Virus record (IMG/VR): IMGVR_UViG_2617270967_000014
Strand: one strand, 5' to 3'
DNA length: 40,547 nt
Origin: a virus
Lineage: Duplodnaviria; Heunggongvirae; Uroviricota; Caudoviricetes
Positions 21,001 through 24,000 of this stretch are shown here, piece by piece. Numbering within the stretch: the stretch's first letter is position 1; every line of letters begins with the position of its first letter. The position numbers were made by a program.

Positions 21001-24000
21001 ATTATTCCCTCTCACTGGATTTTCCCAACAAAAAAGGAGCCGAAGCTCCTTTAGTTTCAGAATTCAAATTGTCTTGCCCGCAGGCTTTTCAGCATTGGCA
21101 TGGCCCGCTGGATAACGGAACTTGACATGTCGAGACGTGTTACCTCCCTCAGTAGCGCGTCTCTGTTCTTCGTCACCATGTAGATGGTCTCAAACGCAAT
21201 GTCATACAGCTTGTTCGTGTATGAGGAGTTCAGCTCTTTCATAATGGGATACAGGTGTTTGCTGATGTCCTGGGCTTTTTCCATCCAGAGCTGCATGTAG
21301 CAAAGGAGGATGATTTCTTCGGCTGTGAATTGTGGCTGAATCTGCGGCTGCTGTTCGGTTGGTGCTGTTTTTCCCTGGCTGAAATAGCAGTCTTCCAGTT
21401 TTTCGAATACCTCCCACGCCCGATCGGTTTCGAGCATTTTTGCGTGACGGGCTGCGCCGCGTTCTGTCCAGAGGATGAGGGAGCGGGCATTTTTACCAAC
21501 TAACCCGATTGTTTCGGGTCTGTTCTTAAACTCGCGTAATTCGTTTTTTTCAATTTTAAAGTAATGCTTTCCGGGCATGAATCGCGTCGTGTTGTTCAGA
21601 AAGTTATCAGAAATGTTTTTGATTTTTGTTCCGTAAAGGTGAGCCAACAGTTCAGTAGTAATTACGGGGATCTGGTTATAGGTAACAGGGGAAAGGTTTT
21701 CGACAGAAATTTGAACAGCCATAATGACCTCGCGTTTCGATAATTTTTACCTCGCCACCGTCAGGTGCTAATCATCGTGGTGGCGAACTGTGCGGGGTTA
21801 GCACTACCGGTCGAAACATCCGGCGAGCCTTTCGGCTCCCCCACACAGCCCGCCATAAATCGCGAATGTGACTGTGCTTAGCGCATAAAAAAACCGCCAG
21901 CGCGGTTATGCACCGTTTCGATATCCGGGGTGCTAATCCCGACGCCAGGTTTTGCTGGCGCGTGAGGAATATAGCCCCGAACACGCGACGTTGTCAAACT
22001 GATGGCATTGCAGATCCCTACGCAATGTAACACTATGTGTTATACATTAATAACGGAACAAAAAATGCGCATTTTTAAAAACGCCTGGTTTGAGCGATTT
22101 GCACGCAAAACAAAATATCCGACCAATCACTGCGCGAAATTGTTAAACAGGCTGATAACGGGCTTATCTCAGCAAACCTGGGTAACGGCGTTATCAAGCA
22201 ACGTCTGCCACGAGTCGGTGGCGGCAAATCTGGCGGTTATCGCACAATCATTTTCTATCGCGTCGGCACAAGGGCCTTTTTCGTATATGCATACGCAAAA
22301 AATGAACGTGAAAATATAACCGCTACTGAGGAAAGTGCATTTCGGAAGGGGCTCCTCACGTACTCAATCTAACAGATGAACAACTGGCACAACTGATTCT
22401 ACAGGGTCAGTTTACGGAGGTACCCAATGAGTAAAAATTACCGCAGTGATGCGCTTGCATCCGTACATGAAATGATGGAATCGCTTCATGATATCGGCGC
22501 AGTAACGAAACAGACTATGCGAGAATTCGATGAAACTTGTCTCCAGCCAGCGCCGGTAATGTCTCCGGAAAGGATCCGTGCACTGCGCGAACGAGAGCAT
22601 CTGTCTCAACCTGTTTTTGCCAGATACCTCAACGTCAGTAAAAACCTGATATCAGACTGGGAACGTGGTGTAAAACGGCCGGGAGGTGCCGCTCTTCGCC
22701 TTCTTTCAGTCGTAGAGAAAAACGGAATCCAGGTAATATCATGATACTCCAATACAACAAACCCCGCCGAAGCGGGTTTTCATTAGAAGCACCTTTAGTT
22801 TTGCTGTTCTATTTTAAGCTTGATAGTTTCATACAAAACAACAGTTGCGCCTGTTTTACATAATTCCCGGCCGTCATACGCACGAGACCAATAACACAAC
22901 CAGTTCTCGAGATCTTCTCGAGTATAGGTTTTGCAGGCCAGTCCCTCTGCCATTTCCACGATTTCATCGCCTGGTGCTGTTAACTCATAGCCATTCAACA
23001 ACAAGAAGACATAACCAGCCATCATAGCTGTTCGTTTGTTTGCATTAGCAAATGGATGATTCTGAATCAGACTTTCAATCAATACTGATGCCAGTACAAA
23101 CATGTCATTAGTCTGTTCATACCATCGAACCATGCTGGGACGAGACTGAGAAGAACTTAAATTATCAACACTCAGCACACTAACAGGTTCATCTGGTGTT
23201 TGAAGCTCAATTAAAAGGCGATTAATTTCGGTAAGATCATCAAACGAAAGGTAGTGCACTCCTTCAACAATATCAGCCATAGAGCACAATACCCATCATT
23301 ACACTTTTGAAAGTTCTTCCATTGCCTTCTCGTAACGAGAAAAACCGAAATCGAAAGCATTTTTCACCTGCTCACGATGAGTGCAATTTTCATCGATAGC
23401 CGGGCGCGGAGCTGCCACAACGCTTTTATCGCGAGGGGGAATAGTCAATCGCGGGTGTTTTTTTAGTGCGTAGCTCATTGGGTGTACCCTTACTTCTCCG
23501 TCCTGTTCTTTAACAAAAATCAAGTCAATACAAAATTAGTCAGGCTAATGTTGTTAGCATAGCCTAATACCAATCGTATTCACAACCACAGTAAGTGAAA
23601 AAACCCGCCGAAGCGGGTTAAGTGCGGGTGCGTTGAGGATGCCTGACACATCAGAGGTGGCGAGGGATTTCTCCCTCGCCTGGTCTCTTACTCCTCAGGT
23701 TCGTAAGCTGTGAAGACAGCAACCTCCGTCTGACCGGTTCGGATTCGTACCTCGCAGAGGTCTTTCCTCGTTACCAGTGCCGTCACTACGACGGTAATAC
23801 AGATGACGATCAGGGCGACTAACATCGCCTTTTGCTGCTTCATAGCCTGCTTCTCCTTGCCTTTCGGCGCGTAAGAGGCTAACCTACATGTGTCTAGCAT
23901 GAAATTGGCCTCAGATTAATGTTAGGCGTCTTGCAGGACGCGTAATGTTAACTGGGGTTTTTCTCTGTCTGCCTTACGGTGGCATGCCCGAGGCAGACAG

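Follow-up and report, generated by a model that had tools for sequence, protein, structure and literature searches.

The toxin gene of a higBA2-type toxin–antitoxin (TA) module carried by a lambdoid Escherichia coli prophage is very probably a recent pseudogene. The module lies in IMG/VR virus record IMGVR_UViG_2617270967_000014, a 40,547-nucleotide (nt) stretch of tailed-phage (Caudoviricetes) DNA that is termed here the window, and all coordinates given below are window positions unless a strain is named. Two inherited single-base deletions have spread the toxin gene over three reading frames, and this explanation, in which no active toxin is now made, is assigned a probability of about 0.88. 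The helix–turn–helix (HTH) antitoxin gene that follows is uninterrupted. The arrangement of the two genes is that of a higBA-type operon, in that the toxin gene lies upstream of, and overlaps, the gene for an XRE-type HTH protein homologous to a proven HigA. The locus is a type II TA module, with the toxin gene first, that is carried as an independent cassette.

Three-frame translation of positions 22000–22440 revealed how the toxin is divided. The peptide MRIFKNAWFERFARK is encoded in the frame of the ATG at 22065 and the toxin text then continues one base back, as ...NKISDQSLREIVKQADNGLISANLGNGVIKQRLPRVGGGKSGGYRTIIFYRVGTRAFFVYAYAKNERENITATEESAFRK, which locates the first switch of frame within AAAACAAAA (22107–22115). 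This agrees with a first-pass annotation, made by reading the window sequence without database searches, in which the toxin frame was described as split near 22105. After the residues ...FRK the text moves again, into the third frame, where the last 27 residues, APHVLNLTDEQLAQLILQGQFTEVPNE, are followed by a stop codon. When these pieces are stitched together the resulting protein aligns with Pfam family PF06296 from end to end (protein residues 1–121 on profile positions 1–120, E = 2.2e-44), which is far beyond chance.

The lost bases were defined by DNA alignment to intact alleles. Comparison with E. coli HCP4S3_I4 and 2013C-3033 shows that the first frameshift (FS1; 22107–22110, + strand) is a one-base deletion after codon 15, where AAAAA in the intact alleles has become AAAA in the window. 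The second frameshift (FS2; 22349–22350, + strand), defined by alignment to FORC_069, HCP4S3_I4 and others, is the loss of a C between two G's, by which the ancestral AAGGCGGCT has become AAGGGGCT. This changes GGCGG to GGGG, and the preceding frame afterwards reaches a TAA at 22370–22372. The first-pass annotation had proposed a single shift, at the A run: the loss of one A from a run of five is borne out, and the second deletion had been missed. Comparison with intact homologues, which that annotation had put forward as a check, is what defines both lost bases here.

Across the whole toxin gene the window differs from the HCP4S3_I4 allele at three places only, namely the lost A, the lost C and a synonymous substitution at 22126. 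Restoring one A and one C gives a 123-residue protein that is 100% identical to the intact HCP4S3_I4 toxin. Because just one synonymous change in the toxin gene has arisen since the split from the intact allele, the decay is judged to be very recent. Homologues all begin at the residues MRIF, which correspond to the ATG at 22065; the start of the feature had previously been set at 22002, but the ATG at that position is merely upstream and in frame.

Consistent with the loss of two bases, none of the three frames now carries a complete toxin. The open reading frame (ORF) that starts at the toxin ATG (22065–22319, + strand) comprises 15 native codons (MRIFKNAWFERFARK, 22065–22109), 69 out-of-frame codons and a stop, so that ribosomes starting at this ATG would make an 84-residue nonsense peptide, and translation from it ends 108 nt short of the antitoxin gene. 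The toxin core, corresponding to ancestral residues N16–K95 and including R47, R60, Y77 and K79, lies one base back (22109–22348, + strand). This core frame contains no ATG, GTG or TTG, and a listing of ORFs of at least 20 residues returned none in it; the catalytic core is, therefore, not translated from a canonical start. The C-terminal segment, residues A97–E123 together with the ancestral stop TAA (22432–22434), occupies the third frame (22351–22434, + strand). That stop overlaps the start of the antitoxin gene by 8 nt (22427–22434), and an identical 8-nt overlap is annotated in intact loci. PF06296 toxins occupy a single uninterrupted ORF of ∼120–130 residues, whereas the window has this domain divided among three frames. 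Judged from its sequence, the window gene is a pseudogene of a PF06296 member and not a functional member of the family.

A toxin that is split yet still functional would need either separately expressed fragments that assemble or a 68-residue core that is active alone. The RefSeq/PGAP annotation might be taken in this sense, since in the cM8a and O104:H4 genomes it lists a 68-residue ‘RelE/ParE family toxin’ coding sequence (CDS; 22166–22372, + strand) that begins at an ATC codon and bears no pseudogene flag, and all four active-site equivalents lie within it. In FORC_069-type genomes the corresponding RefSeq/PGAP CDS has 112 residues and begins at an ATT codon. However, besides the lack of ATG, GTG and TTG in the core frame, no Shine–Dalgarno-like sequence was seen ahead of the ATC. 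Moreover, the 68-residue fragment lacks strand 1, helices 1–2, the greater part of helix 3, the whole of helix 4 and the final strand, as placed on a low-confidence model of an intact homologue, and it gave no NCBIfam match at E <= 0.001. A working split toxin is, in our view, highly improbable.

The family to which the ancestral toxin belonged is clear from profile searches. The stitched protein scored 151 bits against PF06296 ‘RelE’, for which the cut-off is 27, and covered profile positions 1–120 of 120; every homologue listed likewise carries PF06296 as its precomputed Pfam domain. No other Pfam family, PF05015 ‘killer protein’ included, matched the stitched toxin at E <= 0.01. The label given in the first-pass annotation, a HigB/RelE-like killer protein, can accordingly be kept as regards the HigB-2/PF06296 family and abandoned as regards PF05015. 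No NCBIfam or PADLOC model matches the toxin, and PHROGs places the toxin and the antitoxin in families of unknown function, phrog_5869 and phrog_2104. Toxins of PF06296 are described as ribosome-dependent, mRNA-degrading proteins, encoded ahead of their antitoxins and going by the names HigB-2, RelE and StbE (PMC11980606, a survey of the RelE/ParE superfamily, Table 1).

The closest solved structure for the toxin is that of Vibrio cholerae HigB-2 (VcHigB2), with a match confined to the core (E = 0.003). In the phmmer alignment to 5JA9/5JA8, VcHigB2 residues R51, R64, Y82 and K84 stand opposite R47, R60, Y77 and K79 of the restored toxin, and mutation of these VcHigB2 residues lowers activity 170- to 3000-fold (PMC5416850). 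Across a set of 60 homologues, R60 never varies and R47 and K79 hardly do so; at position 77 the E. coli alleles have Y and most of the remaining homologues have F. An AlphaFold2 model of an intact homologue, built from a 60-sequence alignment, was of low confidence (mean predicted local distance difference test score (pLDDT) 63.3; predicted template modelling score (pTM) 0.55). In this pLDDT 63.3 model the elements of secondary structure are predicted in an order (strand, two helices, three strands, helices, strand) that would be in keeping with a RelE/BECR fold; a Foldseek search of the same low-confidence model against the PDB gave no match at E <= 0.001, the best having E = 1.7. As the model is poor and the Foldseek output only noise, no claim is made about the fold, and the assignment of the toxin to its family rests on sequence.

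It could be argued that the toxin is really intact and that two bases were miscalled, and the first-pass annotation had indeed raised the prospect of a sequencing error in a homopolymer. FS1 does fall in a short homopolymer, and the window is known from assembled sequence. Queries of 61 nt, centred on each lesion, were compared with complete E. coli genomes. The A4 allele that defines FS1 was present in 28 of the 34 complete genomes that matched its query, and the C deletion of FS2 in 22 of 33. Both lesions occur together in 20 genomes, comprising 17 O104:H4-lineage assemblies from many laboratories along with cM8a, AST198 and NMBU-W12E19, and FS1 is found alone in 8 (FORC_069 and others). An identical double-lesion allele in 20 independent complete genomes, from many groups and platforms, and an FS1-only allele in at least 8 more are not what miscalled bases would give. 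Moreover, FS2 is a C lost from GGCGG and not a miscounted homopolymer length, and a distinction between A4 and A5 is short for a systematic error. An artefact is thus very hard to credit, and the homopolymer-error explanation falls away.

A further explanation, also put forward in the first-pass annotation as a shift dependent on the slippery run, is that programmed or leaky frameshifting rebuilds the toxin. If -1 slips took place at A_AAA (22112–22115) and at G_GGG (22348–22351), a near-native toxin (N16T, A96G) would be made at a low, regulated level; the P-site tRNA would re-pair perfectly at both sites and the product would differ from the native protein at two residues only. However, two independent slips are required, and without stimulation the two in combination would yield a negligible amount. 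An X_XXY_YYZ heptamer is present at neither site. The RNA 3′ of the first site shows less structure than its shuffled controls (z +1.0), and that 3′ of the second is not significantly structured (z -1.7) and starts without a spacer.

The comparative data also speak against recoding. FS1 and FS2 occur separately in different genomes, and an intact allele exists at >99% nucleotide identity. A homologue search returned 1927 clusters (E <= 1e-5), and nearly all of the 120 listed are 121–130 residues long, with query coverage of 98–100%. In other lineages the same gene has been killed by insertion of an insertion sequence (IS) or by a +1 insertion. Frameshifting is very unlikely, and we rate it as the least probable of the explanations considered here. 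Phase variation by slipped-strand mispairing was rejected separately, as a contingency locus needs runs longer than 4–5 nt, and FS2 is not a change of repeat length in the ancestral sequence.

In the antitoxin gene, by contrast with the toxin gene, nothing has been disturbed. It is an uninterrupted 105-residue ORF (22427–22744, + strand) that matches Pfam HTH_3 at 1e-07, and its product is identical to WP_000042397.1, a protein found beside the intact toxin of HCP4S3_I4 as well as beside dead toxins. The first-pass annotation was right to call the downstream HTH antitoxin intact, and its suggestion that the toxin had been inactivated and the antitoxin retained is the one among its three explanations that the two inactivating deletions, the core frame without a canonical start and the antitoxin identity uphold. 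The closest solved structure for the antitoxin is V. cholerae HigA-2 (E = 7.9e-08 over residues 45–99). The C-terminal part (residues ∼45–100) is an XRE-type HTH domain, and the N-terminal part (residues ∼1–44) is presumed to neutralise the toxin.

The regulatory parts around the antitoxin gene are likewise untouched. The Shine–Dalgarno sequence GGAGG (22416–22420, + strand) ends 6 nt ahead of the antitoxin ATG and is invariant in all aligned alleles. Upstream of the toxin lies an operator-like perfect palindrome, TAACAC-TAT-GTGTTA (22028–22042; candidate operator sequence TAACACTATGTGTTA), which was read from the sequence and which is the sole conserved block 5′ of the toxin ATG in alleles (O157-like, E423) with upstream DNA that cannot otherwise be aligned. 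This palindrome is a likely operator, and presumably the binding site of the HTH antitoxin. A simple sigma-70 promoter scan found no + strand site upstream of the toxin; a possible extended -10 element, TGT-TATACA (22038–22046), overlaps the palindrome and suggests where the TA promoter may lie. The module is closed by a bidirectional intrinsic terminator, CCCGCCGAAGCGGG followed by a T tract (22763–22785; also delimited as 22763–22776).

In a predicted RNA fold of positions 22352–22420 (+ strand; minimum free energy structure frequency 0.14, z -1.7), CUCC near 22354 pairs with GGAG of the antitoxin Shine–Dalgarno sequence. If real, such a helix would link translation of the antitoxin to that of the toxin in the intact operon, and would lower antitoxin output now, although the fold gives no more than a weak indication of this.

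The wider survey indicates that damage to this toxin gene is recurrent. A megablast search of 5426 complete E. coli genomes located the module in 217 of them, always on the chromosome and in most of them as a single copy (median 1 per genome, highest 2). Intact alleles carry a 372-nt toxin gene encoding 123 residues. Besides the genomes with FS1, FS2 or both, strains 23CRST047/049 carry FS2 together with a second deleted A, at 22332, and are without FS1; and the toxin gene of E. coli O10:H32 NMBU-W12E19 (L011, 748–3390) is interrupted by an IS66-family element. For the O157-like allele group, which is ∼84% identical, at least 51 of 169 genomes have a toxin split by one G added to a G4 run, and 113 genomes have G4; an example of the added G is seen in strain 94-3024 (L006, 1538–1910). 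At least five independent lesions have hit the toxin in E. coli prophages, and in roughly 80 of the 217 loci (∼38%) the toxin is dead.

In the same material the antitoxin CDS was intact in 12 of the 12 related loci inspected. In addition, among 47 sampled O157-type loci the total match length was 735 or 736 nt, which leaves no room for a net length change beyond the added G. All four combinations of FS1 and FS2 exist, which rules out a simple nested order for the two deletions and points to recombination, or to recurrence at the A run. The ratio of non-synonymous to synonymous substitution rates (dN/dS) between allele groups is 0.01–0.07 for both genes. Such strong purifying selection on the intact family, for which dN/dS is 0.02–0.07, implies that the ancestor of the window allele was functional. 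A search of the phage collection returned one related record only, PhiR12_3, at 93.8%.

Taken together, these data are best explained by a prophage TA module that is eroding from its toxin, an ordinary kind of decay that is common and well described. The loss of the toxin would be the usual first step in the erosion of such a module, since mutations that kill the toxin are tolerated and those that kill the antitoxin are lethal as long as the toxin is alive. The lethality of antitoxin loss while the toxin is alive also accounts for the finding of five lesions in the toxin and none in the antitoxin, a distribution with P ∼0.05 if the targets were simply proportional to length. The cell would now make the HTH protein only, and this protein probably still represses its own promoter; addiction, abortive infection or any other function of the module that depended on the toxin would have been lost. 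In all likelihood the orphan antitoxin survives as an HTH protein that regulates its own expression. Toxin-first pseudogenisation, as the first part of a two-step decay, has been reported as a general pattern in chromosomal TA systems (Belot et al., 2026, PMC13617665).

An alternative view of the antitoxin is that it is an orphan kept by selection, either as an anti-addiction or immunity factor against HigB-2-type toxins of other prophages and plasmids or as a transcription factor acting elsewhere. Several observations would fit such a role. The antitoxin protein is identical across lineages that bear at least four different toxin lesions, and conservation extends to the Shine–Dalgarno sequence, the operator-like palindrome and the terminator. 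Toxins that could be cross-neutralised are common, as the 113 genomes with the G4 allele and no added G illustrate, and between the two allele groups the antitoxins differ at 1 of 105 residues whereas the toxins differ by ∼14%. Orphan antitoxins are, moreover, abundant in E. coli, and an anti-addiction role has been proposed for them (PMC10790755).

However, neutral loss would not be expected after so recent a decay, and neutral persistence explains an intact 318-nt gene equally well. The five-to-none distribution of lesions would be expected in any case while the toxin was alive. In addition, the locus is mostly single-copy, so that there is usually no second resident toxin in need of neutralisation. 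Retention of the orphan antitoxin by selection is regarded as unlikely, though not as negligible. The stronger form of the idea, in which the antitoxin is actively kept as a prophage-borne immunity factor against circulating HigB-2-type toxins and the repeated killing of the toxin (∼38% of loci) is itself selected and not neutral, is a shade more doubtful again.

Some points do weigh against the conclusion that the toxin is a pseudogene and that the antitoxin is made without it. RefSeq places no pseudogene flag on the gene and lists the 68-residue CDS from ATC, so that a fragment product is still conceivable. Both lesions have left homopolymer tetramers (A_AAA and G_GGG) at which a -1 slip in the P-site re-pairs perfectly, and a trace of near-native toxin is thus formally possible. 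Both deletions in the window itself were read from assembled sequence. The ancestral toxin is presumed to have been a PF06296 ribosome-dependent mRNA endonuclease, an activity that is ascribed to it by homology. Finally, the loss of translational coupling and the possible helix that sequesters the Shine–Dalgarno sequence could reduce antitoxin output, and that the antitoxin is still expressed is something that we infer.

Pseudogenisation of the toxin remains the favoured reading. The locus can also be set beside systems already described. The V. cholerae HigB-2/HigA-2 module (PDB 5JA8, 5JA9, 5JAA and 5J9I; Hadzi et al., 2017, PMC5416850) has the toxin gene first, as does the window module, and equivalents of all four of its RelE-like active-site residues are present in the restored window toxin. 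The antitoxins are also alike, with ∼104 residues, a C-terminal XRE-type HTH domain and an N-terminal extension, and HigB2 is among the names in use for PF06296 toxins (PMC11980606). The toxins themselves are only weakly similar (E = 0.003, core only), and the E. coli toxin is extended by an extra helical segment at its C-terminus. Moreover, the window module resides in a prophage and not in the superintegron, and its toxin gene is a pseudogene with two frameshifts.

The nearest relatives are intact alleles in other E. coli prophages. In HCP4S3_I4 (WP_077168034.1 and WP_000042397.1) the antitoxin and the restored toxin are each 100% identical to those of the window, and in O157:H7 PV15-279 (WP_001217944.1 and WP_000042395.1) the corresponding values are 99% for the antitoxin and 86% for the restored toxin. 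These intact prophage alleles share the cassette, the palindrome, the 8-nt overlap, the terminator and the setting in the nin region of a prophage with the window; they differ in having a single 372-nt toxin ORF, where the window lacks one A and one C. The cases of toxin-first erosion (PMC13617665) and of E. coli orphan antitoxins (PMC10790755) already described have in common with this locus small toxin lesions, an intact antitoxin, recurrent independent lesions and a mobile element. Nothing substantive sets the window apart from them, and it adds a further case from another TA family and another host.

The cassette lies on the + strand inside the minus-strand early-right (nin) region of a lambdoid, Shiga toxin (Stx)-phage-like prophage. 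It is flanked on one side by an ORF6N/P22AR antirepressor gene with its isrK/C4 RNA cassette and on the other by a Doc-type module and hok/sok. Compared with the prophage of E. coli cM8a, the window is a related mosaic that is collinear with it only over 10861–28542 (99.73% identity); the flanks, 1–10860 and 28543–40547, differ from cM8a or are rearranged, as expected for a mosaic lambdoid prophage. Among complete E. coli genomes the TA region is 100% identical in cM8a alone.

Several neighbouring features were also recorded. A cassette of isrK, C4 antisense RNA and c4-a1b1 target is present in two copies, at 21776–21974 and 20191–20389 (both on the - strand; Rfam, all matches above the gathering score), each just upstream of an antirepressor gene (ORF6N/P22AR, 21057–21722, and Ant, 19455–20138, respectively). 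A near-consensus sigma-70 site, TTGACA-18-TATATT (21997..21968, - strand), fits the start of the first isrK and is divergent from the TA promoter region. On the far side of the decayed module two further TA-type modules adjoin it (22795–24012, - strand), so that the nin region contains a run of three addiction-type cassettes. These are a Doc/Fic-family toxin gene (22795–23280, - strand) with a 59-residue upstream ORF (23299–23478), and hokD with a match to sok RNA (23688–24012, - strand).

Further away, a full-length match to the small RNA (sRNA) STnc100 (165 bits; 16844–17049, - strand) lies between the Q antiterminator gene (17388–17822) and a DUF6645 ORF. In Stx phages this slot is occupied by the stx genes; the window has none annotated there. 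A match to the sRNA-Xcc1 family (73 bits, above the gathering score; 3335–3420, + strand) lies inside the minus-strand block of virion genes. At 11834–12415 a lone + strand gene stands between the terminase and lysis genes, and its annotation in the collinear part of cM8a is lipopolysaccharide core heptose(II)-phosphate phosphatase; this gene has the look of a further moron.

Overall, the decay of a TA module from its toxin is a kind of event that is already known, and this locus adds an instance. It matters little beyond annotation, where the locus would be better flagged as a toxin pseudogene with an orphan antitoxin; the RefSeq 68-residue ‘toxin’ that begins at an ATC codon is listed in the O104:H4 outbreak lineage, among others. 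At the level of the population it is mildly useful as a clear-cut case, found in nature, of a TA module eroding from its toxin, and it may serve as a test case for the anti-addiction hypothesis.

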